A program made the translations under genes and the position numbers. The notes below the pieces were generated by a model, which searched no databases, was not told the origin of the DNA, and was given only the letters and a program-made list of their open reading frames with translations. From positions 1,233,762 to 1,297,761 of the forward strand of contig OZ244202.1 in assembly GCA_965216815.1 (NCBI GenBank): a stretch of DNA of 64,000 nt, given 5' to 3'. Shown one piece after another: positions 11,872 through 64,000 of this stretch. Every line of letters begins with the position of its first letter. The first letter of the stretch is position 1. Origin of the DNA: Acidimicrobiales bacterium. GTDB taxonomy: Bacteria; Actinomycetota; Acidimicrobiia; Acidimicrobiales; SHLQ01.

Positions 11872-12493
11872 CCGCAGCGTCGGGCCTGTCGGTGTAATCC
11901 TCGACGGTTTCGACGATGGCGGCGATGACCTGGTCCACCTGGGCGGCGCGTGAGACGCCGGCGTGGTCGGACCAGCCCCACTCCTCGCGGTTCCAGCGCG
12001 CACCGGGCGGCAACTCGACCTGCACCCCGGCGTTGGCGGGCAGATTGACCGGATTGTCCGGATGTATGCCCCTCAACTCCGTCGGGATCGACTCGAGGTC
12101 GTCGACGACCTCGAACTCGTCACCGAGATTCGTTCGCAAACGGTCACCGAGACTCATGGCCAGGGCGCGGTTGCGGCCGCCGAGCATCACGGTTCTCAGT
12201 TGGTCGTGGCGACCGAATCCATGGATCGTCATCACGGTCTTCACGTGGGCGAAGAACCCATCCAATGCTGCCGAATCCGAGGGGTCGACGTCGGCCGACG
12301 CGATGTGCACATCGGGATCGTCGGGCAGTGCGAGCCCGTAGTACGAGGCTCCGCATGCCGCGGCTGCCTCTTTCGCGATCACGTCGGTGACCTTCTCGAG
12401 TCCGCCTCCGTGGTAGGCGCAGATGCCGAACGACGAACGGAGCTCGCTCTCCTCGGCCACATCGTTTCGGCGCAGCAGGCTACGAAGACGCAC
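11849..12493 (-). CDS. poly-gamma-glutamate hydrolase family protein (DUF867-like)
   Basis: ORF 11849..12493. 'AYHGGGLEKVTDVIAKEAA' and 'MTIHGFG' resemble the HGGGIExGT / HG motifs of this family. Confidence 0.65.
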   Translation of the reverse strand: MRLRSLLRRNDVAEESELRSSFGICAYHGGGLEKVTDVIAKEAAAACGASYYGLALPDDPDVHIASADVDPSDSAALDGFFAHVKTVMTIHGFGRHDQLRTVMLGGRNRALAMSLGDRLRTNLGDEFEVVDDLESIPTELRGIHPDNPVNLPANAGVQVELPPGARWNREEWGWSDHAGVSRAAQVDQVIAAIVETVEDYTDRPDAAVRAPVVR

Positions 12494-12555
12494 GCCCAGA
12501 CCCTAGGACGCTGGCTGCGTACCCGACACCTGCCCGTACCAGGTGTCGCTAGACA

Positions 12556-13680
12556 CTAGGACGCCGGCAGTTGTTCGGACTTAGCCGCCTCGGTTGGCCG
12601 GTTCCGGCGGAGGATCGAGGCAAGAACGAGCACCAACACCGCCACCACCGCGATCTCGAGGACCACCGCCCAACGAAGTGGGTCGGTGATCCAGTGCGCG
12701 ATTCGTTCCGGGAGCCCGGCGATGAGACGCAGGGCGGGGAGAACGATCAGCTCACCCTGGTATCCGAGCACCTCGATCGCGGCGACCCCACCTACGAACC
12801 CTCGGCTGTACAACCTGAATCGTCCGGGTTCGATCGATGGCTTCATGCCCCACAGGACGAGGCCCACGATCGCCAAGACGAGCACGAGCCCGATGTGGGT
12901 GGCACCGACATCGCTGATCCAGCCGTTGAGGTGCGCCTGGAGCTCGTCGAGACGATCCTGCACGGGGTTCGTAGTCACCCCGACCGGGTCGCGGAAAACC
13001 TGAATCTCATACCAGCCGTAGCTGACGAGATAGAGGCCGGCGACAACCAGTAGGCCACCTGAGACCCGGTTGACGTACGGCAGGAACGACCGCATCTTCT
13101 GGGCGACCGACTCGCGCGCCATCGAGAGCGAGAGGGTCAGGAAGAGCACCACTGCGCCCATGCCGGCGGCGTAGGCGAGAAAGACAGCGATGCCTTCGAA
13201 GAAGCCCTCGTCGGTGAACGAGGTCGTGATCGTGCTGAGGAAGAGCGGTGCCGTGCATCCGAACGACACGACGGCGAAGCTCACGCCGAAGAGAAACACT
13301 GACCCGAGGTTTCGCGTCTGTCCACCCTTGTTCAGGCGGGGGAGGTTGAGCCTTGGTTCGAATCCTGCCAGCATCGCGATTCCGAGCGGAACGAGCAGCA
13401 CCCCGGTGACGAGGGTCACCCACGGGAGCCGCTCCTCGATCGCCCCGGAGGTGATGATGTTGCGGGTGATGAGTCCGATGATGCCGAACACGACGACGAA
13501 GCTCGCGGTGATGACGAGACCGACGACGAGGCCTCGAAGGGTCGATGTGCGCGAGTCGCCGTCTCCGCTGTCGTCGCTGATGAAGTAGGCCAGGTAGGTA
13601 GGGAGCATCGCGAAGCCGCACGGGTTGAACGCTGCGACGAGCCCGAGCGAGAAGGGATATGCCAGTTCGACGTCGATCAC
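12556..13680 (-). CDS. ccdA: cytochrome c biogenesis thiol-disulfide transporter CcdA/DsbD family, with extra C-terminal TM region
   Basis: ORF 12556..13680. Motifs 'GLVAAFNPCGFAMLPTYLAYF' and 'VSFGCTAPLF'. Confidence 0.85.
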   Translation of the reverse strand: MIDVELAYPFSLGLVAAFNPCGFAMLPTYLAYFISDDSGDGDSRTSTLRGLVVGLVITASFVVVFGIIGLITRNIITSGAIEERLPWVTLVTGVLLVPLGIAMLAGFEPRLNLPRLNKGGQTRNLGSVFLFGVSFAVVSFGCTAPLFLSTITTSFTDEGFFEGIAVFLAYAAGMGAVVLFLTLSLSMARESVAQKMRSFLPYVNRVSGGLLVVAGLYLVSYGWYEIQVFRDPVGVTTNPVQDRLDELQAHLNGWISDVGATHIGLVLVLAIVGLVLWGMKPSIEPGRFRLYSRGFVGGVAAIEVLGYQGELIVLPALRLIAGLPERIAHWITDPLRWAVVLEIAVVAVLVLVLASILRRNRPTEAAKSEQLPAS

Positions 13681-51544: not shown

Positions 51545-51585
51545 ACGCCATAGACTGCGTGCGAAGTCGACCGGCGAGTGCATCC

Positions 51586-52572
51586 ATGTCCTATCCCGAA
51601 CGTCGCATGCGGCGACTACGACGAACTCCAGCGCTGCGGCGGCTGGTCGCCGAGACGCGGCTCCACCCTTCGGACCTCATCGCGCCGATGTTCGTGCGCG
51701 AGGGCATCGACGAGCCGATCGACATTCCGTCGTTGCCCGGTGTCGTCCAGCATTCGATGGACTCGCTGCGGCGTGAGGCGAGGACGCTCACCGAGCTGGG
51801 CGTCGGTGCCATCGTCCTCTTCGGCATTCCCGAACACAAAGACGCCGAAGGGTCCGAGGCTTGGAACGCCTATGGCGTAGTGCAGGTCGCTCTGCGGCAT
51901 CTCACCGAGGATCTCGGCGACGATCAGGTCCTCATCGCCGACCTGTGTGTCGACGAGTACACCGACCACGGGCACTGTGGCATCGTCGACGAACACGGTG
52001 TCGTCGACAACGACTCGACGCTCGAGCTCTATTCGCGCGCGGCCGTCGCGCAAGCCGATGCGGGCGCCGACGTCATCGCTCCCTCGGGAATGATGGACGG
52101 GCAGGTCGCGTCGATTCGTGCCGCCCTCGACATCGCCGACCACTCCGACACTCCGATTCTCGCCTACGCGGCCAAGTACGCATCGGCGCTCTACGGCCCG
52201 TTCCGTGACGCCGTCGACGTCACCATCGCAGGCGGAGGTGACCGCAAGGCATACCAACAAGATCCCCCGAACCTGCGCGAGGCGATGGAGGAGATCCGCC
52301 TCGACATCGAGGAGGGCACCGACATGGTCATGGTCAAACCGGCGCTCAGCTACCTCGATGTCATCTCGGCCGCGCGCGACCGGGTCGACGTACCCCTCGC
52401 CGCATACCACGTGTCGGGTGAGTACTCGATGGTGAAGGCCGCCGCCGCCAACGGCTGGATCGACGGCGCCGCTGTGGCGATGGAGCAGACGTTGGCCATC
52501 AAACGTGCCGGCGCCGACATGATCCTCACCTATTTCGCCAGGGATCTGGCCACCGCTCTCGGGGCTCGATGA
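51586..52572 (+). CDS. hemB: porphobilinogen synthase (delta-aminolevulinate dehydratase)
   Basis: ATG at 51586 within ORF 51559..52572. Motifs 'RRMRRLRRTPALRRLV', 'APSGMMDGQV', 'YAAKYASALYGPFRDA', 'MVKPA'. Confidence 0.95.
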   Translation: MSYPERRMRRLRRTPALRRLVAETRLHPSDLIAPMFVREGIDEPIDIPSLPGVVQHSMDSLRREARTLTELGVGAIVLFGIPEHKDAEGSEAWNAYGVVQVALRHLTEDLGDDQVLIADLCVDEYTDHGHCGIVDEHGVVDNDSTLELYSRAAVAQADAGADVIAPSGMMDGQVASIRAALDIADHSDTPILAYAAKYASALYGPFRDAVDVTIAGGGDRKAYQQDPPNLREAMEEIRLDIEEGTDMVMVKPALSYLDVISAARDRVDVPLAAYHVSGEYSMVKAAAANGWIDGAAVAMEQTLAIKRAGADMILTYFARDLATALGAR

Positions 52573-53834
52573 CAAGCGAGTTGTTCGCTCGTGCCCAGCG
52601 TGTGATTCCGGGTGGGGTCAACTCGCCGGTGCGCGCGTTCGGTTCGGTTGGCGGAGAGCCGTTCTTCGTCGAGCGGGCCAGTGGTCCCAACGTCTGGACG
52701 ACCGACGGCAGGAGGCTCATCGACTACGTGATGAGCTACGGGCCCGGGATCCTGGGCCACGCCCATCCCGAGGTCGTAGAGGCGGTTGCCCGGGCAGCCA
52801 AGGATGGGCTCTCCTACGGCGCGCCGACGCTGCGGGAGGTCGAAATGGCCGAGCTGCTGTGCGAGCGCGTGCCAGGTCTCGACCAGGTGCGGCTCGTGTC
52901 GAGTGGCACCGAGGCAGCCATGTCCGCGATTCGCCTTGCCCGCGGCCACACCGGCCGGGAGGTGCTGGTGAAGTTCGCAGGCAACTATCACGGCCACAGC
53001 GACGCGCTTCTCGCGGCCGGAGGAAGCGGCGTAGCCAACCAGGGCCTCAGCGGCTGTGACGGTGTCACATCAGGGGCCGTCGCCGACACGATCGTCGCCC
53101 CTTACAACGAGGTGCCCATCCTCGATGACGGTGTTGCCGCAGTGATCGTCGAGCCGGTGGCAGCCAACATGGGCGTGGTCGCTCCGGCGCCCGGGTTCCT
53201 CGAAGGTCTGCGGGCCGAGTGCGACCGCGTCGGCGCCCTGCTCCTGTTCGACGAGGTGATCACCGGCTTCCGATTGGGGCCGGGTGGAGCAGCCGAGATG
53301 TTCGGGGTCACACCCGATCTCTGGTGTTTCGGCAAGGTCATCGGCGGCGGGCTCCCCGTCGGTGCCTTCGGCGGCCGCTCCGACGTCATGGCGTCGCTCG
53401 CCCCGCTCGGCGGCGTCTATCAGGCAGGCACTCTGTCGGGCAATCCCCTCGCAACCGCAGCTGGGTTGGCAACGTTGGGTCGGCTCGACGATGCGGCCTA
53501 TGCGCAGCTCACGACGACCGCGACTCGCCTCGCGGATGGCATGGCGAGCGCTTTGGCCAATGCCGGTGTCGAGGCGGTAGTGCCGCGCGTCGGTTCGTTA
53601 GTTGGTGTCTTCTTCAGCTCCGCTGCTCCGTCGGAGTTCGACGCTGCATCGGCCGCGGCCGACAACGGGATCTATCCGCGGTTCTTCCACGGCATGCTCG
53701 AGCGAGGAGTTGCTCTGGCGCCGGGCCCGTACGAGGCGCTGTTCGTGAGCCTCGCCCACGACGACGAAGTCATCGACGAGACCGTCGATGTGGTCGCAGG
53801 CGTCGCGGCCGATATGGCGGAGGGGAAGCGATGA
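52569..53834 (+). CDS. hemL: glutamate-1-semialdehyde 2,1-aminomutase
   Basis: ORF 52569..53834. ATGA overlap with hemB. Motifs 'IPGGVNSPVRAF', 'FDEVITGFR', 'GKVIGGGLPVGAFGG'. Confidence 0.95.
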   Translation: MTSELFARAQRVIPGGVNSPVRAFGSVGGEPFFVERASGPNVWTTDGRRLIDYVMSYGPGILGHAHPEVVEAVARAAKDGLSYGAPTLREVEMAELLCERVPGLDQVRLVSSGTEAAMSAIRLARGHTGREVLVKFAGNYHGHSDALLAAGGSGVANQGLSGCDGVTSGAVADTIVAPYNEVPILDDGVAAVIVEPVAANMGVVAPAPGFLEGLRAECDRVGALLLFDEVITGFRLGPGGAAEMFGVTPDLWCFGKVIGGGLPVGAFGGRSDVMASLAPLGGVYQAGTLSGNPLATAAGLATLGRLDDAAYAQLTTTATRLADGMASALANAGVEAVVPRVGSLVGVFFSSAAPSEFDAASAAADNGIYPRFFHGMLERGVALAPGPYEALFVSLAHDDEVIDETVDVVAGVAADMAEGKR

Positions 53835-55336
53835 GCTCTGTGAGCCGAGAGGGCTCCTGGCCCGACGATCTGGCCTACGAGGCCGACACGCTGGCTGCGA
53901 CATTCGTCGCCGATCACGCCGTCGACCGCATCTGGCAGCGCGATCACACGCTGTGGCAGCCCGACCCGACCGAGATCACCGATCGGCTCGGCTGGCTCGA
54001 TGTGATCGACGACATCGATGTCGACGAGCTCACATCGTTCGCGCAGGGTTGTCGCGAAGATGACATCGTCGATGCCGTTGTCCTCGGCATGGGCGGGTCG
54101 AGCCTCTACCCCGAGGTGCTTGCCCAAACCTACGGCCCGGGAGCCGATGGCGTCACGCTCCGGACGCTCGACACGACCGACCCGGCAGCCATCGCGCGGG
54201 TGCTCACCGAATGCGACGCCGAGACCACCTTGTTCATCGTCGCCTCGAAGTCCGGGACGACCATCGAAACGCGTAGCCAGTGCGAGTACTTCTGGTCACA
54301 GGTCCCCCGCGGCGATCGCTTCGTCGCCATCACCGACCCCGGCTCCGAATTGGGCGCGCTCGCGGCCGAGAGAGGCTTCCGTGCGACCTTCGAGAACCGC
54401 TCCGACATCGGCGGCAGGTTCTCGGCACTGTCTCTGTTCGGTCTGGTTCCCGCAGCTCTGCTCGGTGTCGATGTGTCTGCGATGATCGACTCGGCTCGCG
54501 AGGCGTCTGAAGCGTGTCGAAGCGATGGCGTCGACAACCCAGCCGTAGCCCTGGCAGCCGGCGTCGTTGCTGCCAATCGGGCAGGGCGCGACAAGCTCTG
54601 CCTCATAGACGACCCGGCGATGCCTGCATTCGGTCTTTGGTTCGAACAGCTCATCGCCGAGTCGACGGGCAAACACGGCGTCGGGGTGTTGCCGGTCGTC
54701 GGCGACCCAGCGATGACCGGCGACGATCGTCTGTTCACAAGGTGGGACGGTATCCCGCCCTCAGCGGACGGACCGACCCTCTCGATCGACCGGTGGGGAG
54801 CGGACGATCTCGGCGCGCTCGTGTTCGTCTGGGAGATGACGACCGCCCTCATCGGCGTCGGGCTCGGGCTGAACCCGTTCGACCAGCCCGACGTCGCATC
54901 GGCCAAGGCAGCGACAAATGCTGTTCTCGCCGATGGCCTCGGCGATGTCTCGACGGTGCCGCTCACCTCGCTCACCGACCAGATCCGGCCCGGCGATTAC
55001 GTTGCGATCACGGCCTATGTAGACCCTGGATCGCCGGTTGTCGCAAAGCTCGAGGCTGCTCGACTCGCCATCGGTGAGCGCTTCGGCGTGGCGACGACCT
55101 TCGGGCTCGGCCCGAGGTTTCTCCATTCGACCGGACAGCTTCACAAGGGCGGCCGGTCCAATGGGGTCATAGTGCAGGTGGTCGGAGATGACGACCTCGT
55201 CATCGACATTCCGGGACGGGACTTCGACTTCGCCACGCTCAAACAGGCACAGGCGGAAGGTGACCTGCGCGCTCTTCGCGACCGCGGCATCCGAGCCGGC
55301 CGCGTCGCACTCGAGGAGCTACTCGACCTCTACTGA
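53831..55336 (+). CDS. pgi: glucose-6-phosphate isomerase
   Basis: ATG at 53831 overlaps the hemL stop (ATGA); in frame with ORF 53219..55336, whose upstream part is Arg-rich overlap with hemL. Motifs 'VVLGMGGSSL', 'LFIVASKSGTTIET', 'GGRFSALS'. Confidence 0.85.
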   Translation: MSSVSREGSWPDDLAYEADTLAATFVADHAVDRIWQRDHTLWQPDPTEITDRLGWLDVIDDIDVDELTSFAQGCREDDIVDAVVLGMGGSSLYPEVLAQTYGPGADGVTLRTLDTTDPAAIARVLTECDAETTLFIVASKSGTTIETRSQCEYFWSQVPRGDRFVAITDPGSELGALAAERGFRATFENRSDIGGRFSALSLFGLVPAALLGVDVSAMIDSAREASEACRSDGVDNPAVALAAGVVAANRAGRDKLCLIDDPAMPAFGLWFEQLIAESTGKHGVGVLPVVGDPAMTGDDRLFTRWDGIPPSADGPTLSIDRWGADDLGALVFVWEMTTALIGVGLGLNPFDQPDVASAKAATNAVLADGLGDVSTVPLTSLTDQIRPGDYVAITAYVDPGSPVVAKLEAARLAIGERFGVATTFGLGPRFLHSTGQLHKGGRSNGVIVQVVGDDDLVIDIPGRDFDFATLKQAQAEGDLRALRDRGIRAGRVALEELLDLY

Positions 55337-57160: not shown

Positions 57161-58408
57161 TCAAGCCAGCGGTTCGGGGACAAGGCCCACGATGCGTTCG
57201 ATCGCCTTGTAGGCGAGCTCGGCGGAGTGGACTTCGTCGTCACGCAACAGGTTCGCCATGATCCGCAGCGCCCACTCCATCAGCGATCGCGATCGCATTC
57301 CGACCCTGGTCAGCTGACGCAACAGTGCTGGTCGGCCGATCACCTTGGCGAACAGGCGCGCCGTCTTGAAGTAGAGGCGGAACCGCTCGTCGAGGATCTC
57401 GTCGTACCGGCGCAGGACCAGGGCGCTGCCGGTGGCGGTCGCTTGCTCGACGAGGGAGGCTGCTAGTCGGCCGGTCTCGTACGCATAGTCGATTCCCTCG
57501 CCGTTGAAAGGGTTGATCGAACCGGCTGCGTCGCCGACCAGCAACCAGTTGGGCCCCACCTTCGGCCCGACCGATCCCGCCATCGGGAGTCGACCGCCGG
57601 TCGGGGGTTGGGTCGGGGAGTCGGGGTCGATCTGCCAGTAGTCGGGCATCGTGCGTGCGAACTCGTTCATCAGGTGCGACGTGTTGACGCTGCGGTAGTC
57701 GCGGAACGTCGACAACAGACCGATGCCGACATTGATCGTTCCGTCGCCGACTGGAAAGATCCAGCCGTACCCCGGCATCGAGTTGCCGTTGCGGTCGCGG
57801 ATGTCGAGCGCGCTCTCGATCCACGGGTCGTCGTGCAGCGGGCTCTCGAAGTACGTGCGGATCGCCATTCCCTGCGGGTAGCTGCGGTTGCGGCTCGAGC
57901 CGAGCGCGCGCCCGAACCGCGAGTTCGCGCCGTCGGCAACGACGACGTAGCGGGCGCGGATCTCTCGTTCGTCCCCGGTCTGGGTGTCGCGCACGATCGC
58001 GCCGACGAGGTGACCGTCGTTCAAGAGCGGCTCGGTGGCCTCGGTGCCGGTGTGGAGGGTCGCCCCGGCGCGGGCCGCGTTCTCGGCGACGAGAGGGTCG
58101 AGGTCGTGGCGTCGTACGACGTAGCCGTGACCGGGGTAGACGGGGTGGTCGGGCCATTTCATCTCGAGCGCCCGCCCGTGAGCGACCGCGCGTAGGCCGT
58201 CGTAGCGGTGGTAGGCGGTCAGGTCTATGCCCATCTCGTCGAGCTGGTGAACCGCCCGTGGGGTCAGGCCGTCGCCGCAGGTTTTGTCGCGAGGAAACGT
58301 CTTGCGCTCGACGACGACGACGTCGAGTCCGGCCTTTGCGGCCCAGTAGCCGGTGGCTGCGCCGCCGGGACCGCCGCCGACCACCAGCAGGTCGTGACGA
58401 TCGCTCAT
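57161..58408 (-). CDS. geranylgeranyl reductase family flavoprotein (menaquinone/isoprenoid side-chain reductase type)
   Basis: ORF 57161..58408. Motifs 'DLLVVGGGPGGAATGYWAAKAGLDVVVVER', 'CGDGLTP', 'LLVGDAAGSINPFNGEGI'. Confidence 0.85.
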   Translation of the reverse strand: MSDRHDLLVVGGGPGGAATGYWAAKAGLDVVVVERKTFPRDKTCGDGLTPRAVHQLDEMGIDLTAYHRYDGLRAVAHGRALEMKWPDHPVYPGHGYVVRRHDLDPLVAENAARAGATLHTGTEATEPLLNDGHLVGAIVRDTQTGDEREIRARYVVVADGANSRFGRALGSSRNRSYPQGMAIRTYFESPLHDDPWIESALDIRDRNGNSMPGYGWIFPVGDGTINVGIGLLSTFRDYRSVNTSHLMNEFARTMPDYWQIDPDSPTQPPTGGRLPMAGSVGPKVGPNWLLVGDAAGSINPFNGEGIDYAYETGRLAASLVEQATATGSALVLRRYDEILDERFRLYFKTARLFAKVIGRPALLRQLTRVGMRSRSLMEWALRIMANLLRDDEVHSAELAYKAIERIVGLVPEPLA

Positions 58409-59248: not shown

Positions 59249-59437
59249 CGTGCCTCCACGGCAAGTGCATCAACGGCGAGTGAAATGAGCCGAGCGAACA
59301 TTATGCCCACGTTAGCCACGCTGACCACACGGACCCCGCCTACATTCATCAGGTCCGACTCGGCGTTGTGGCGACGCCGCGTCTCACCTATTCGAGCGAC
59401 AGTCGTCGGGGCCCTGGCGTCGAGCCGCATGCGCCCG

Positions 59438-59516
59438 GCAGACCTCCGGTCTGCTTGGAGTTCCCGCTAGCGGGAACTCCGGCAGCGAAGCACGAGTTTC
59501 GGCTCGCCGAAACTCG
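59438..59516. other. three consecutive near-perfect hairpins in a 640-bp intergenic region
   Basis: H1 59438-59454 'GCAGACC tcc GGTCTGC'. H2 59457-59480 'GGAGTTCCCG ctag CGGGAACTCC' (a 24-nt perfect palindrome). H3 59493-59516 'CGAGTTTCGG ctcg CCGAAACTCG'. Confidence 0.4.
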
Positions 59517-59663
59517 AAGGAACGCCAAGGCGTGCCCGAGGACGAACGGGCTCGACGCTGGGGTGGCGACGGGAGCGGGGCAGGCGGCCCCGATGTGCAC
59601 GCGAGAAAATTCGCATGGTAGACAACGCCCGGTTCGGCCCGTTCAGCGCCACGGTCGATACAC

Positions 59664-59682
59664 TTGTGCACGGATTCACGAA
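59664..59682 (+). promoter_or_regulatory. Rex-operator-like inverted repeat upstream of the Rieske/cytochrome b6 operon
   Basis: 'TTGTGCA CGGA TTCACGA' matches TTGTGAA-N4-TTCACAA at 6/7 + 6/7 positions. It lies ~200 bp upstream of the TTG start at 59886. The core 'GTGCACG' is shared with the rex site. Confidence 0.45.
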
Positions 59683-59885
59683 GTCGGTGCACGAGGTCGT
59701 GGTGTCCCGTACGGGTCGGTTCGGACGGCTCGAGCGACGACGCGTCGACCGGTCGCCGGTTGAACGATAGATTTCAAACAAGTTGCTGCACGATGCGTCG
59801 TGTCGCCGGGTTCGGGGCCTAACATGCCGACCGGTCGGCAGGGCCGTCACAGGTTGTTCGAGCAGGGTCAAGAAGGAGGGTTGCG

Positions 59886-60341
59886 TTGGTCGCATTCATC
59901 GTTTCGATCGTCGCAACACTGGCGTTGGTCGGCGGCATCATGTGGTACATGAAGCGACGTCCGGTCGGCGCGCCGCTCACCTGGGGCGAAGCGATGCTCG
60001 GCGCCACCTACGTCTTCCTCCTGTTGTTCCTTCTCTATGGCGTCGTCCCTCACCAGTGGCTGACGTGGGCCGACAACGAGCTGGGGTGGCGTCCCGACAA
60101 GCTCCTCATCGGTCCCGAGATGGCCTGGACCGGCGGTCAGGGCCTCCTCGAATGGGCGCTGCCGTTCACGCTCCACTACCAGGTGATTCGCGACATCATC
60201 GCGGTGGTCATCTATGTCATCGGACTCGGAGGCACGATGGCGGTGTGGGTCATGTGGCAGAACCGAGACGCCGACCAGGTCGAAGAAGAACCGACTTCCG
60301 AGTTCGGTCGACCGCTGGTCAAAGAAGGCGCAACGGTATGA
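59886..60341 (+). CDS. 3-TM hypothetical membrane protein, first gene of the Rieske/b6 operon
   Basis: ORF 59886..60341. The TTG start is preceded by 'AAGGAGGG'. No family recognised. Its stop overlaps the ferredoxin start (ATGA). Confidence 0.6.
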   Translation: MVAFIVSIVATLALVGGIMWYMKRRPVGAPLTWGEAMLGATYVFLLLFLLYGVVPHQWLTWADNELGWRPDKLLIGPEMAWTGGQGLLEWALPFTLHYQVIRDIIAVVIYVIGLGGTMAVWVMWQNRDADQVEEEPTSEFGRPLVKEGATV

Positions 60342-60754
60342 CCACCACCGACGCCAACCCTCCTCTGCCCGAGTTCCGCGACGACTACGTCCTCCAGGAG
60401 GTCGGCGCCGATTGGCTCCAGGCGCAGGTCAAGCCCAAGCAGTTCATTCACATCGACCAGTCCGAGTGCATCATGTGCGAGGGCTGCGTCGACATCTGTC
60501 CGTGGAAGTGCATCCACATGGTCGAGCCCGAGGCGGTCGACGAGGCCGTCGGCACCGAGCTCCCGGGCCGCGATCCGAGCGATCACGTCATCTTCACCAT
60601 CGACGACGATGTCTGCACCCGCTGCGCTCTGTGCGTCGACCGCTGCCCGACCGGAGTGATCATCCTCGGCAAGCTCGCCGAGCCACCCGCCGACGGCGAC
60701 CCGCACATGCGTACCAACTCACACGGCTACGGATACGGGATGCGACTGGCATGA
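60338..60754 (+). CDS. 2x[4Fe-4S] ferredoxin-type protein
   Basis: ATG at 60338 in frame with ORF 59783..60754. Two complete motifs, 'CIMCEGCVDICP' and 'CTRCALCVDRCP'. Confidence 0.8.
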   Translation: MTTTDANPPLPEFRDDYVLQEVGADWLQAQVKPKQFIHIDQSECIMCEGCVDICPWKCIHMVEPEAVDEAVGTELPGRDPSDHVIFTIDDDVCTRCALCVDRCPTGVIILGKLAEPPADGDPHMRTNSHGYGYGMRLA

Positions 60755-60805
60755 CCGTGCACACGAGCGATCGATTCGACCGGGGTAACGAGGGAGCGTC
60801 CCAAC

Positions 60806-61588
60806 GTGGCAACTGACAAAGCGCCGCTGCCCGAGCGCATGCAGGAGAAGGCCTCCGAGCTAGGCGACTCGATCCAGGGCTCCCAGGCGTGGACCTCGAT
60901 CTTCCGCCCGGGTTCGATATTCCGGAAGGGCTACACCGACAGCCCGAGGAACCGCTCCTACGTGATCATGAACAGCGTGCTCTATCACCTCCACCCGGTG
61001 AAGGTGAAGCGGCACGCGGTCAAGGTCAGCTACACGCTTTGTCTGGGCGGCCTCAGTTTCTTCCTCTTCATCCTGCTCACCGTCACCGGCATATTCTTGA
61101 TGTTCTTCTACCGACCGACGGCCGCAGCCGCCTGGGACGACATCTCGACCCTCCAGACCTCGGTGACCTTCGGCCTGCTCGTGCGCAACATGCACAGATG
61201 GGCGGCCCATCTCATGGTGCTGTCGGTGTTCTTGCACATGGCCCGCGTCTTCTACCACGGTGCTTACAAGCCACCGCGAGAGTTCAACTGGGTAATCGGC
61301 GTGATCCTGCTCACGCTCACCCTGCTGTTGTCGTTCACCGGCTACCTGCTGCCGTGGGACCAGCTGGCTCTGTGGGCTGTGACCGTGGGTACGAACATGA
61401 TGGGATTCACACCCGTTTTCGGTGATCAGGTCAGATTCGTGCTGCTCGGAGGGGTCGAAATCGGCACTGACACGCTGCTGCGCTGGTACGTGCTGCACGT
61501 GCTGATGTTGCCCTTCGTCATCGTGATCTTCATGGCAATCCACTTCTGGCGCGTCCGCAAGGACGGCGGAATCTCAGGACCGCTGTAG
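60806..61588 (+). CDS. qcrB: cytochrome b6-type subunit (N-terminal four-helix half of cytochrome b)
   Basis: ORF 60806..61588. Heme ligand pairs in 'RNMHRWAAHLMV...FLHMARVFYHG' and 'RWYVLHVLMLPFVIVIFMAIHFWRV'. GTG start after 'GAGGGAG'. Confidence 0.9.
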   Translation: MATDKAPLPERMQEKASELGDSIQGSQAWTSIFRPGSIFRKGYTDSPRNRSYVIMNSVLYHLHPVKVKRHAVKVSYTLCLGGLSFFLFILLTVTGIFLMFFYRPTAAAAWDDISTLQTSVTFGLLVRNMHRWAAHLMVLSVFLHMARVFYHGAYKPPREFNWVIGVILLTLTLLLSFTGYLLPWDQLALWAVTVGTNMMGFTPVFGDQVRFVLLGGVEIGTDTLLRWYVLHVLMLPFVIVIFMAIHFWRVRKDGGISGPL

Positions 61589-61590
61589 CC

Positions 61591-62394
61591 ATGACAGAGA
61601 TCCCCGAACACCTGCTCAAGAGGGCCCAGGAGGCTCGCGAGAAGGCCGCCGCTAAGTCCGGCGGCGATGCCGCCGAGTCGAGCCCTGCGACCGGCGATGC
61701 CGGTGACGACGCGCCGGCGAGCGAGGCCGCCAGCAAGATACCCGCCCACCTGCTCGAACGGTCACGCGCCGCGCGTGCCAAGGCCGGCGGCGACGATGCG
61801 CCGGCCGATACCCCTGCTGCGGCGACTCCGGCTGCCGCGGGTGACGGCGGTGGTGGCGAAATGGTTACCTCCGGAGCGCCGGTTCCGACCGGTCCCGACG
61901 GTCACACGCAGCGGCTGCTCACCGTCGTCAAGTCGGGTTCGATCCAAGACGTCAAGGCCAAACCGCAGGACAAGGTCCACACGTGGCCCCACCTGCTCGT
62001 CATCGAGTTCGTAGCTGCGCTGGTCATAACCGCATTCACATTGGTCTTTTCGATCTTCGTCAACGCGCCGCTGCTCGAGTTGGCCAACTTCAACGAGACC
62101 CCCAACCCGTCGAAGGCACCTTGGTACTTCCTCGGCCTTCAGGAACTGCTCACGATGTTCCACCCGATGGTCGCCGGCGTGACCATTCCGGGCATGGGCA
62201 TCTTCATGTTGATCCTCGCTCCGTACATCGACAAGAACCCGTCGAACAAGCCCGAGGATCGCAAGTTCGCCATCGCGATCATGACCTTGCACCTCATGTT
62301 CTGGACCGTGCTGGTCATGATCGGATCGTTCTTCCGTGGACCGGGTTTCAACTTCGTGTTCCCGTGGAACGATGGACTCTTCTTCGAGCTGTAG
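61591..62394 (+). CDS. subunit IV-type protein (C-terminal half of cytochrome b) with ~100-aa N-terminal extension
   Basis: ORF 61591..62394. 'NPSKAPWYFLGLQELL' is a PEWY-equivalent motif. 3 TM segments. The extension carries two 'IPxHLLxRS' repeats. Confidence 0.8.
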   Translation: MTEIPEHLLKRAQEAREKAAAKSGGDAAESSPATGDAGDDAPASEAASKIPAHLLERSRAARAKAGGDDAPADTPAAATPAAAGDGGGGEMVTSGAPVPTGPDGHTQRLLTVVKSGSIQDVKAKPQDKVHTWPHLLVIEFVAALVITAFTLVFSIFVNAPLLELANFNETPNPSKAPWYFLGLQELLTMFHPMVAGVTIPGMGIFMLILAPYIDKNPSNKPEDRKFAIAIMTLHLMFWTVLVMIGSFFRGPGFNFVFPWNDGLFFEL

Positions 62395-62409
62395 GCAGGT
62401 GATCGACCA

Positions 62410-63261
62410 ATGAGTGCGTTGGCCATAGCCGTTCCGATCCTGATCGTGCTCGCCGCCGTCGTGTTGTTCGCGGCCTACCGGCGACGCGATGCCGGCGACG
62501 CCACCGGGCAGCTCTCGCGAGAAACGCGCAAACGCGACGTCGGTGAACCGCTCGTCGGGCAAGAGTCGCCCCCACCGACCGGCAAAGCGATAGAGCGCGC
62601 CGCGGTGATCGAGCGGACCCAGGGCGAGCTGGTCCCCACCGAAACGGCTCCCCCTGCGCCGTACGTACCGCCCGACATCGAGGAGATCGGCGTCAACCGG
62701 CGCCAGTTCCTCAACCGCAGCATCGTCGGCTCGTTCGCACTCGGCCTAGGAGGGTTCGGCGCCGCTTGCGTCGCCTTCCTGTGGCCTCAAGGCGGCGAGG
62801 GCTTCGGGTCTCGCATCAACGTAGGCTTGCTGTCGGACGTCAAGGCCGAGATCGGCGACAACAATGGGTTCCTCTACAAGCCCGAGGGACGTATGTGGGT
62901 GACCGAGTACCCGGTCGGGGCAATCGAGAAGGCACGGGCCGTGTATCCCGACAACGTCATCAGCGGCATGCAGGAGGGCGTCGTCGCCCTCTACCAGAAG
63001 TGCCCTCATCTCGGCTGCCGAGTGCCCGAATGCGTGACCTCGCAGTGGTTCGAGTGCCCATGTCACGGCTCTCAATACAACCGCGTCGGTGAAAAGCGCG
63101 GTGGCCCTGCGCCGCGGGGTATGGATCTGTTCGCGATGGAGATCGCCGACGGAAACCTCGTCGTCGACACGGGCACGATCGTCAACGGAGCCCCGATCGG
63201 GACCAACACGACCGGTCAGGAAGCCGAAGGCCCACACTGTCTGGGAGAGTCGGACCACTGA
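62410..63261 (+). CDS. qcrA: Rieske [2Fe-2S] iron-sulfur subunit
   Basis: ORF 62410..63261. 'CPHLGC' and 'CPCHGS' boxes. An internal twin-arginine-like 'NRRQFLNRS' precedes a TM segment. There is an extra N-terminal TM segment. Confidence 0.9.
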   Translation: MSALAIAVPILIVLAAVVLFAAYRRRDAGDATGQLSRETRKRDVGEPLVGQESPPPTGKAIERAAVIERTQGELVPTETAPPAPYVPPDIEEIGVNRRQFLNRSIVGSFALGLGGFGAACVAFLWPQGGEGFGSRINVGLLSDVKAEIGDNNGFLYKPEGRMWVTEYPVGAIEKARAVYPDNVISGMQEGVVALYQKCPHLGCRVPECVTSQWFECPCHGSQYNRVGEKRGGPAPRGMDLFAMEIADGNLVVDTGTIVNGAPIGTNTTGQEAEGPHCLGESDH

Positions 63262-64000
63262 TGTCGTCCTCGTTCGCAATCGTCCTCGGGGCGACCTCGA
63301 CCCAGCGCGCAATCGGGTGGATCCTTGCGTCCCTGGTCGTCGTCGGTTTGCTGGGCTACTTCCTGTTCAATCTCCGGACCGGGAACAAGGAGATCGGCTC
63401 GGAGATCGAGCTCGCTCCCAACCGCAAGCCCTACTACGACGACGAGATCCTCGAGGGCCGCAAGCTCGACCTGTCGCTCAGCTTTGCGCTCGTGCTGTTG
63501 ACCTTCACCGCCGTCGCGCTGCCGATCTACTGGCTAGCCGAGCCCGGCCGGATGGCAGGCGCCGAGGAGGGCCTCGACCGCACGCTCACCAACCGTGGCA
63601 CGGACCTTTATGACGAGAACTGTGCGAATTGCCATGGGCCCGGCGCGACGGGCGGGTCGACCGCCGTCACGCTCACCGACGAGAACGGAGACTTCGTCGC
63701 GCAGGTCACCTGGGCCGCGCCATCGCTGACCACTGTGTTGTCGCGTTTCGATGAGGACGAGGTTCGCCACATCCTCAACTTCGGGCGCAACGGAGTCATG
63801 CCCGCCTGGGGTGCGCCCGGCGGCGGCCCGATGACCACCCAACAGATAGACGAGCTCATCTATTACATGCGGTCGGTGCAGCTCACGCCCGAAGAGGCAT
63901 CCAAGGAGGTCGAAGACGGCATACGCGCCGGCGTGCGCCAGGAGCTCATCGACACCGGTGAGGTCTCGGCCGACGCCCCCGCCGAGGAGATCGACGCCGC
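63261..64000 (+). CDS. qcrC: membrane-bound cytochrome c subunit (QcrC-like), 3' end outside window
   Basis: The frame is open from the ATG at 63261 (TGATG overlap with the Rieske stop) to the window end. It is absent from the ORF track because no stop is reached. Two TM segments, 'PIYWLAEPGR', 'CANCHG', 'GVMPAWG'. Confidence 0.8.
   Translation, partial: MSSSFAIVLGATSTQRAIGWILASLVVVGLLGYFLFNLRTGNKEIGSEIELAPNRKPYYDDEILEGRKLDLSLSFALVLLTFTAVALPIYWLAEPGRMAGAEEGLDRTLTNRGTDLYDENCANCHGPGATGGSTAVTLTDENGDFVAQVTWAAPSLTTVLSRFDEDEVRHILNFGRNGVMPAWGAPGGGPMTTQQIDELIYYMRSVQLTPEEASKEVEDGIRAGVRQELIDTGEVSADAPAEEIDA

Follow-up and report, generated by a model that had tools for sequence, protein, structure and literature searches.

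Why should the genes of a respiratory cytochrome b complex be preceded, within one operon, by a gene for a protein with two [4Fe-4S] clusters, and that gene in turn by one for a small membrane protein? The question is raised by positions 59886 to 64000 of a 64,000-nucleotide (nt) stretch of the genome of an Acidimicrobiales bacterium (GenBank assembly GCA_965216815.1, contig OZ244202.1, positions 1,233,762 to 1,297,761 of the forward strand; this whole stretch is "the window" in what follows). It touches on a wider one: Rieske/cytochrome b complexes are among the best-studied of energy converters, and the exchange of electrons between haem ci and ferredoxin-like partners on the membrane's n-side (the one facing the cytoplasm) is a matter of debate. 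The operon encodes a respiratory menaquinol:cytochrome c oxidoreductase, a b6-type Rieske/cytochrome b complex of this Acidimicrobiia bacterium, and the iron-sulfur (Fe-S) protein and the membrane protein are obligate, lineage-specific partners of that complex. A whole class of bacteria, abundant in oceans, soils and wastewater, and related Actinomycetota besides, encode both of them inside the operon.

Gene content, linkage and conservation

Six genes lie on the same strand with minimal spacing, from 59886 to beyond 64000:

59886-60341, plus strand: membrane protein with three transmembrane (TM) segments (the 3-TM protein), 151 amino acids (aa), TTG start; no curated family
60338-60754, plus strand: 2x[4Fe-4S] protein (the ferredoxin), 138 aa; Fer4 matches in Pfam
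60806-61588, plus strand: cytochrome b6, 260 aa, GTG start; PF00033
61591-62394, plus strand: subunit IV, 267 aa; PF00032
62410-63261, plus strand: Rieske [2Fe-2S] protein, 283 aa; CPHLGC and CPCHGSQY motifs
63261-64000, plus strand, continuing past the window end: membrane-anchored cytochrome c, cut at residue 246

The first two genes overlap in an ATGA, 51 nt separate the ferredoxin and b6 genes, gaps of 2 and 15 nt lie before and after the subunit IV gene, and the cytochrome c start overlaps the Rieske stop by 1 nt. An earlier reading of the letters alone (the sequence-only reading) had described this six-gene operon, and its description is accurate: all six genes are where it placed them, the ATGA coupling is present, and the TTG start of the 3-TM gene does have a strong Shine-Dalgarno sequence (AAGGAGG, 8 nt upstream). 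The same reading had allowed for a separate promoter or terminator in the gap between the ferredoxin and b6 genes (60754-60806); a simple consensus scan finds no promoter-like or terminator-like site there. Pfam and NCBIfam back the assignment of each core subunit, as do matches in the PDB. Each of the six genes has hundreds of homologues, and they are accordingly real genes rather than chance open reading frames (ORFs). Products identical to the 3-TM protein (all 151 aa of it), the ferredoxin and b6 as delimited here are already on record, which means that an independent annotation drew these gene boundaries too. (In frame with the ferredoxin, an ORF of 323 aa, 59783-60754 on the plus strand, spans the whole 3-TM gene; homologues back only its last 138 codons, from the ATG at 60338, and the rest is dismissed as an artefact of high guanine-plus-cytosine content.)

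Is this arrangement an accident of one genome? A genome scan with the ferredoxin, in a collection holding one genome per species, found at least 575 stretches that encode a close relative of it, about one for each species genome; 80 Acidimicrobiia loci were kept. Wherever the contig is long enough, the order 3-TM protein, ferredoxin, b6, subunit IV, Rieske protein, cytochrome c is found in all of them (80/80); a small homologue of the 3-TM protein with two or three TM segments lies directly upstream of the ferredoxin in every one of the 80, and the two genes are within about 10 nt of each other in most. An exhaustive search of 1.84 billion cluster representatives yielded 156 representatives of the ferredoxin family at E <= 1e-10, many of them fragments: the family is compact, and includes a few divergent full-length representatives (36-53% identity). 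A second set, of 82 divergent loci, consists of 80 metagenome loci, from a scan seeded with an alignment of divergent members, and two contig look-ups; a few of the 82 proved to be of the Acidimicrobiia type. Where the ferredoxins are 34-55% identical, the b6, subunit IV and Rieske genes follow directly in 76 of the 76 loci with enough downstream DNA. The Acidimicrobiia 3-TM profile recognises a small upstream TM ORF in 59 of 79 other loci, mostly of the distant group, the misses being mostly truncated contigs. All loci taken together, 157 of 158 are colinear, and the sole exception is an artefact of a short motif match. That colinearity reaches down to 34% identity, with no exception found, implies that the association of ferredoxin, 3-TM protein and b6 is ancient within the phylum. 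Linkage of the ferredoxin and 3-TM genes to Rieske/cytochrome b genes elsewhere, on which the sequence-only reading had staked its proposal, is thus what the genomes and the distant loci display.

The named sources of the divergent group are all "Actinomycetota bacterium". Close homologues with a taxon name come nearly all from Acidimicrobiia or the wider Actinomycetota, the exceptions being a few metagenome-assembled genomes (MAGs) with the label Acidobacteria and one that is called just "bacterium"; single-cell genomes of marine origin retain the module (loci L014 and L032). The sequence-only reading had called the operon non-canonical. By contrast with the classical actinobacterial qcrCAB operon the word holds, but the arrangement is not peculiar to one genome: it is standard in the whole class Acidimicrobiia.

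Strict and deep synteny is matched by very high conservation. Median identity to the window proteins across the 80 Acidimicrobiia species is 90% for b6, 83% for the ferredoxin (near b6 and far above the Rieske protein), 71% for subunit IV, 62% for the Rieske protein and 51% for the cytochrome c. The Fe-S protein and its putative membrane anchor are under constraint comparable to that on b6, the 3-TM protein with a median identity of 51% and the ferredoxin and b6 with the values just given.

The ferredoxin and its membrane partner

The ferredoxin carries two complete C-x2-C-x2-C-x3-C-P cluster motifs, CIMCEGCVDICP and CTRCALCVDRCP. It has neither a TM segment nor a signal peptide, and no hydrophobic segment was found in it, in keeping with its description as soluble-looking by the sequence-only reading. 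A 35-aa N-terminal extension (with DY, WL and K-x-K motifs) is kept in both divergent groups; the C-terminal tail, ending HGYGYGMRLA, is specific to Acidimicrobiia, and the distant-group ferredoxins are without the HGYGYGMR. The spacer between the two cluster motifs is about 38 aa long, similar to that of NuoI, and the best family matches are to NuoI/NdhI, at scores below cutoff: 39.8 against 113 bits for TIGR01971 (E = 3e-10) and 33.6 against 302 bits for TIGR00403. With both cutoffs missed, membership in the NuoI/NdhI family is rejected; the likeness lies in the long spacer and in being a candidate for what NuoI and NdhI are, a peripheral Fe-S subunit on a membrane complex, and the N- and C-terminal regions and the gene context differ. 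Motif spacing and best family matches nevertheless make the protein resemble complex-bound Fe-S subunits rather than small soluble ferredoxins. No relative of it occurs in any solved bc1 or b6f structure, which agrees with the earlier remark that such a subunit is foreign to known bc1 and b6f complexes.

Is it simply a free carrier, or perhaps a redox or oxygen sensor, that is co-transcribed with the complex and never docks on it? [4Fe-4S] proteins are common sensors of oxygen and redox state, and a protein lacking TM segment and signal peptide could well be free in the cytoplasm. Against this stands the company that it keeps: it is constantly paired with a co-evolving small membrane protein and always placed directly upstream of b6, and the linkage persists to 34% identity. 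It has long conserved extensions, which are missing from small soluble ferredoxins, and, so far as Pfam is concerned, it contains Fer4 domains only, with no DNA-binding or signalling domain. A free carrier or sensor is, on these grounds, judged very unlikely.

An AlphaFold2 model of the 3-TM protein has three helices (residues 2-24, 33-66 and 98-125) at a predicted local distance difference test score (pLDDT) of 82.8, and no fold match in the PDB; like the ferredoxin, it belongs to no curated family and has no solved relative. Its invariant motifs include TWGEAM, YGVVPHQWL (in the second TM segment and the following loop) and a C-terminal S-x-FGRPLV, the last predicted by the positive-inside rule to be cytoplasmic. 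In the distant Actinomycetota group the membrane partner has two predicted TM segments and a cytoplasmic N-terminal extension. (Apparent 3-TM-ferredoxin fusions in the protein library, among them P0132, P0157, P0177, P0141 and P0211, were set aside as frameshifted or garbled ORFs from error-prone assemblies.)

The core complex and its possible cytoplasmic module

Cytochrome b6 matches PF00033 with E = 4e-46. Its residues 74-260 align with the b6 chains of solved b6f complexes, including the four haem histidines (H130, H144, H231 and H246) and, in the motif CLGG, the equivalent of Cys35. All 151 of the b6 sequences that were compared have CLGG, and wherever an alignment extends to the four histidines they are there too. 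The motif corresponds to the haem-ci cysteine of b6, and covalent haem attachment is predicted.

This invariant cysteine invites another explanation of the two leading genes: that they encode dedicated assembly or maturation factors, for haem ci attachment or cofactor insertion, and that linkage reflects co-expression and nothing else. Strict synteny would suit a dedicated factor as well as it suits a subunit. Haem ci requires a cytoplasmic-side maturation system, and one is known only in oxygenic phototrophs (CCB). In Pfam and NCBIfam the ferredoxin and the 3-TM protein match neither CCB nor any further family of maturation proteins, and a median identity of 83%, near that of b6, would be unusual for an assembly factor. 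Moreover, the other lineages with a CxGG motif (Firmicutes, cyanobacteria, other members of the APWY clade discussed below; PMC4122944) are not among the named sources of the ferredoxin family. Maturation factors are accordingly regarded as unlikely, less so than a free ferredoxin.

The N-terminus of b6 is about 45 residues longer than that of cyanobacterial b6. Residues 27-53 (AWTSIFRPGSIFRKGYTDSPRNRSYVI) are conserved nearly as well as the core (mean top-residue frequency 0.82 against 0.88, over 134 sequences drawn from the two groups). The NCBIfam ExtP model begins only at residue 54 and so does not cover the segment, which is absent from cyanobacterial b6 and from the APWY cytochrome b of Aureibacter tunicatorum, the sole non-actinobacterial one inspected, whose cluster consists of cytochrome b, a Rieske protein and a multihaem cytochrome c and is without a ferredoxin. 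Solved b6f structures have the N-terminus of b6 on the n-side, which would put the added segment on the ferredoxin's, that is the cytoplasmic, side. It is plausible, from what are very few comparisons, that residues 27-53 form a docking surface for the Fe-S protein. Just downstream, H61, H63 and H70 (in YHLHPVKVKRH) are invariant in 151 of 151 sequences. The idea that they are ligands of an extra haem (compare His43 in anammox models) was dropped, since LHLHP is also found in the Aureibacter protein with no ferredoxin beside it; the motif is probably a clade-wide feature, and it resembles a general N-terminal motif of cytochromes b.

PF00032 spans residues 165-246 of subunit IV, which has three TM segments, ends at FFEL with no CxxCH, and (in this form) has no relative among solved structures. 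APWYF does stand in place of PEWY, as the sequence-only reading had it, and APWY is the motif of the quinol-oxidation (Qo) site in 121 of 121 orthologues found; the N-terminal extension, put at 100 aa by that reading, is closer to 125 aa. It is of low complexity and contains two copies of IP-x-HLL-x-R-[SA]. In the fuller form [IV]P-x-[HY]LL-x-R-[SA]-x3-[RK] (MTEIPEHLLKRAQEAR, KIPAHLLERSRAAR, MTEIPEYLLERSRERR) this peptide motif is found in the cytoplasmic N-terminal extension of subunit IV (61600-61650 and 61738-61790, plus strand) and at the N-terminus of a divergently encoded cytochrome c (59239-59190, minus strand), and nowhere else in the 64 kb; nearly all of the 80 Acidimicrobiia loci have it at these positions, and the distant group is without it. 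Perhaps it is a docking peptide common to both proteins in the cytoplasm, serving for instance the ferredoxin (whose C-terminal tail is likewise confined to Acidimicrobiia) or the formation of supercomplexes.

The Rieske protein has hydrophobic segments at residues 3-21 and 105-123, the two N-terminal TM segments of the earlier description, the second of them preceded by RRQFL, which resembles a twin-arginine translocation signal. Its CPCHGS-x-Y motif is present in nearly all orthologues, and the Ser and Tyr match the high-potential type of b6f and bc1. The cytochrome c has two TM segments and one CxxCH (CANCH) before the window ends; its orthologues are about 420 aa long, and 65 of 67 have two haems. 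(In the distant group a single haem is frequent in the cytochrome c encoded downstream: 14 of 23.) What lies beyond the window end is inferred from relatives. A seventh conserved operon gene is found there, 3' of the dihaem cytochrome c (at 12134-13072 in locus L045); its product, about 310 aa long, is a membrane protein that Pfam assigns to no family. Of the 80 Acidimicrobiia loci 66 have the gene, and in the second set the N-terminal part was found in 22 loci, all but one of the distant group.

How might such a complex work? The core would run a Q cycle. Quinol would be oxidised at the APWY Qo site, one electron passing to the Rieske cluster, from there to the dihaem cytochrome c of the operon (and probably to the divergently encoded one as well), and on to an oxidase; the other would reach haem ci across the membrane by way of haems bp and bn. 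Within the membrane, the 3-TM protein would be a neighbour of b6 and subunit IV; it and the extra N-terminal segment of b6 would between them keep the Fe-S protein at the cytoplasmic surface, its two clusters within electron-tunnelling distance of haem bn/ci and so linking the n-side to the cytoplasm. A chance slightly better than even is given, on the strength of sequences and gene order, to the view that both proteins are stable additional subunits of this kind, an n-side Fe-S module within tunnelling range of haem bn/ci.

If so, in which direction would electrons flow? Entry would proceed from low-potential donors in the cytoplasm through the Fe-S clusters and haem ci to menaquinone at the Qi site, which is downhill; such a route would resemble the ferredoxin:quinone reductase route that has long been proposed for b6f (cited in PMC5600118). 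Exit would mean lifting an electron from the level of the menaquinone pool to the potentials typical of [4Fe-4S] clusters, and moving it against the membrane potential besides. By rough estimate the driving force needed is greater than a Rieske cluster near +300 mV supplies, so that exit would be feasible only with unusually high cluster potentials. Thermodynamic reasoning (it is reasoning, not a result) leans toward entry. The more specific proposal, that the 2x[4Fe-4S] protein is a hard-wired n-side redox port of the cytochrome b6 complex, whether for entry or exit, is offered tentatively and is on the doubtful side. Two versions can be imagined: 1) The complex could serve as a direct ferredoxin-type:menaquinone oxidoreductase acting through haem ci, a genetically fixed bacterial version of the ferredoxin-to-b6f route of cyclic electron flow. 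2) Quinol oxidation by the high-potential Rieske protein could push low-potential electrons into the cytoplasm, along the lines of what has been proposed for anammox.

Several points weigh against a docked and electron-conducting Fe-S module. With its CxGG motif and b6 core intact, the complex could equally run an ordinary Q cycle, for which such a module is not required. The AlphaFold2 model of the ferredoxin alone is poor (pLDDT 39.6, from a 53-sequence alignment). Support from gene fusion is nil, the apparent fusions of 3-TM protein and ferredoxin being frameshift artefacts, and the genes adjoining the operon include none for a conserved redox partner in the cytoplasm. The comparison with ferredoxin-less APWY proteins rests on one genome, that of Aureibacter tunicatorum, and one family model, and no proteomic or structural data were found for association of the ferredoxin or the 3-TM protein with the complex.

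The respiratory setting of the operon is evident from its neighbours. Upstream of it in the window are:

59249-59885, no strand: divergent intergenic region, 637 nt, with four palindromes
59457-59480: perfect 24-bp palindrome GGAGTTCCCGCTAGCGGGAACTCC
59493-59516: 11+2+11 inverted repeat, 12 nt downstream of the GGAGTTCCCGCTAGCGGGAACTCC palindrome
59743-59758 and 59825-59840: two palindromes with GACCGGTC core, the second 46-60 nt upstream of the operon start codon
58439-59248, minus strand: membrane-anchored monohaem cytochrome c, 269 aa, divergent; cytoplasmic N-terminus with IPEYLLERS
57161-58408, minus strand: MenJ-like menaquinone reductase, 330 bits against a 700-bit equivalog cutoff
about 53819-55336: phosphoglucose isomerase
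52569-53834: hemL
51559-52572: hemB

The divergent monohaem cytochrome c, which occupies the same position in 65 of the 80 Acidimicrobiia loci, probably accepts electrons from the complex or is otherwise its partner. The 637-nt region between it and the operon presumably holds both divergent promoters; it matches no Rfam family at gathering score, and the GACCGGTC palindrome core upstream of the operon is not conserved: 4 of 78 relatives have it. In Salinilacustrithrix flava, a cultured species, the genes that come next in the operon are those for the full-length dihaem cytochrome c, the membrane protein of about 310 aa, and then nuoA-D; in one more distant relative it lies beside ctaC/D/E-type oxidase and haem-biosynthesis genes, and hemB, hemL and hemD also adjoin it in the distant-group locus L081. 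This is the respiratory gene neighbourhood of aerobic, menaquinone-using bacteria.

It also disposes of a reading suggested by annotation, that the operon is a selenite/tellurite reduction (Ext) system. The b6 protein does exceed the ExtP equivalog cutoff, with 307 bits against 290, and NCBI gives the name ExtP to at least one protein of its 90% cluster, from an Acidimicrobiia MAG. Subunit IV, at 54 bits, falls far short of the ExtQ cutoff of 150; no other Ext family appears among the scanned operon proteins, nor was one seen in the neighbourhoods of annotated relatives, where in aerobic Acidimicrobiia the operon is accompanied by genes for cytochrome c, cytochrome oxidase, nuo and haem biosynthesis. 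Next to no credence can be given to an Ext system. The ExtP naming of respiratory b6 proteins looks like systematic over-annotation, and the practical consequence is that automated annotation mislabels b6 genes of respiration as genes of selenite/tellurite reduction.

Were the proposal of a redox port to prove true, for electron flow in either direction, the Fe-S protein and its anchor would represent a new class of subunit of Rieske/cytochrome b complexes, one that all Acidimicrobiia apparently have and that occurs in other deep Actinomycetota as well. Cultured members exist, and this makes for a tractable system in which to establish the role of an n-side Fe-S module on a b6 complex.

Relation to known complexes

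The first comparison to be made is with the actinobacterial bcc complex (QcrCAB of Mycobacterium and Corynebacterium). Phylum and role (menaquinol:cytochrome c reductase) are shared; in both, moreover, the cytochrome c is a dihaem membrane protein and the Rieske protein has additional TM segments at its N-terminus. The bcc complex differs in having a long unsplit QcrB, the gene order qcrC-A-B, a PDWY Qo motif and no ferredoxin. All three Qcr models score far below cutoff (QcrB 119.8 against 500 bits, QcrA 18.9 against 275, QcrC 23.5 against 200), which rules out a bcc complex and bears out the contrast with classical qcrCAB drawn by the sequence-only reading. The same scores qualify its term "QcrC-like" for the cytochrome c, which is right as to a membrane dihaem c-type protein and not as to the family. 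A Bacillus-type b6c complex (QcrABC, in which subunit IV and cytochrome c are fused) is likewise rejected: the cytochrome c is encoded here by a separate gene after the Rieske gene.

Likeness to the b6f complex of cyanobacteria and chloroplasts is greater: it extends to the alignment of b6 over residues 74-260 with its haem ligands and Cys35, and to a separate subunit IV. The best family match of the Rieske protein is PetC, and its CPCHGSQY matches the b6f Rieske motif. In place of cytochrome f there is a membrane dihaem cytochrome c, and PetG/L/M/N are missing from the operon; the Qo motif is APWY instead of PEWY, b6 and subunit IV have N-terminal additions, and an Fe-S protein is encoded inside the operon. 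A long-standing proposal for b6f is that ferredoxin or ferredoxin-NADP reductase (FNR) feeds haem cn from the n-side (cited in PMC5600118).

The Rieske/b complexes of anammox bacteria (Kuenenia) carry Fe-S/flavin modules, including a cytoplasmic NAD(P) (nicotinamide adenine dinucleotide (phosphate)) oxidoreductase subunit with several [4Fe-4S] clusters, and it has been argued that a high-potential Rieske protein in a menaquinone organism drives haem bp to very low potential (PMC12954380). The comparison with anammox that was made in the sequence-only reading is therefore apt: in both cases a Rieske/b6/subunit IV core goes with a cytoplasmic [4Fe-4S] subunit, and the Ser/Tyr type of Rieske protein with menaquinone; Planctomycetes, moreover, are listed in the APWY clade. 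The resemblance noted is one of architecture. In place of an oxidoreductase there is a 138-aa two-cluster protein without a flavin adenine dinucleotide (FAD) or NAD(P) domain, there are no multihaem cytochromes (those here have one or two haems), and the hosts are aerobic heterotrophs. A complex of the anammox type, with an n-side oxidoreductase, is set aside on the ground that the ferredoxin is Fer4-only and the cytochromes c are mono- or dihaem.

There remains the APWY clade, defined by Kao & Hunte (2014; PMC4122944) as split cytochromes b with a CxGG motif. Its members come from Deltaproteobacteria, Chloroflexi, Nitrospirales, Planctomycetes and some Firmicutes and, among Actinobacteria, from Rubrobacteridae and the acidimicrobial Ilumatobacter coccineum; no member had been characterised at that time, and reverse operation was the subject of speculation (PMC4122944). 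The operon shares the split b6 and subunit IV (a four-helix b with four histidines, separate from a three-helix subunit IV), the APWY Qo motif and the CxGG haem-ci motif. The usual motif of the clade is WCMGG, in place of which LCLGG is found here; and the cytochrome c and oxidase context favours forward, respiratory use over the reverse operation proposed for the clade. The text of PMC4122944 describes no linked ferredoxin or 3-TM protein, its sole 4Fe-4S/ferredoxin passage dealing with cytochromes b of the PDWF-FeS clade. Published mention of the ferredoxin or 3-TM linkage was not found more generally (PMC4122944, PMC5600118, PMC12954380 and PMC3578206 included), though operon figures of earlier reviews may show it. 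As far as found, then, universal linkage of the ferredoxin and 3-TM pair to b6 suggests an undescribed variant built on a core of known kind: judged by its motifs and by the published listing of Ilumatobacter, the Rieske/b6/subunit IV core fits the APWY clade.

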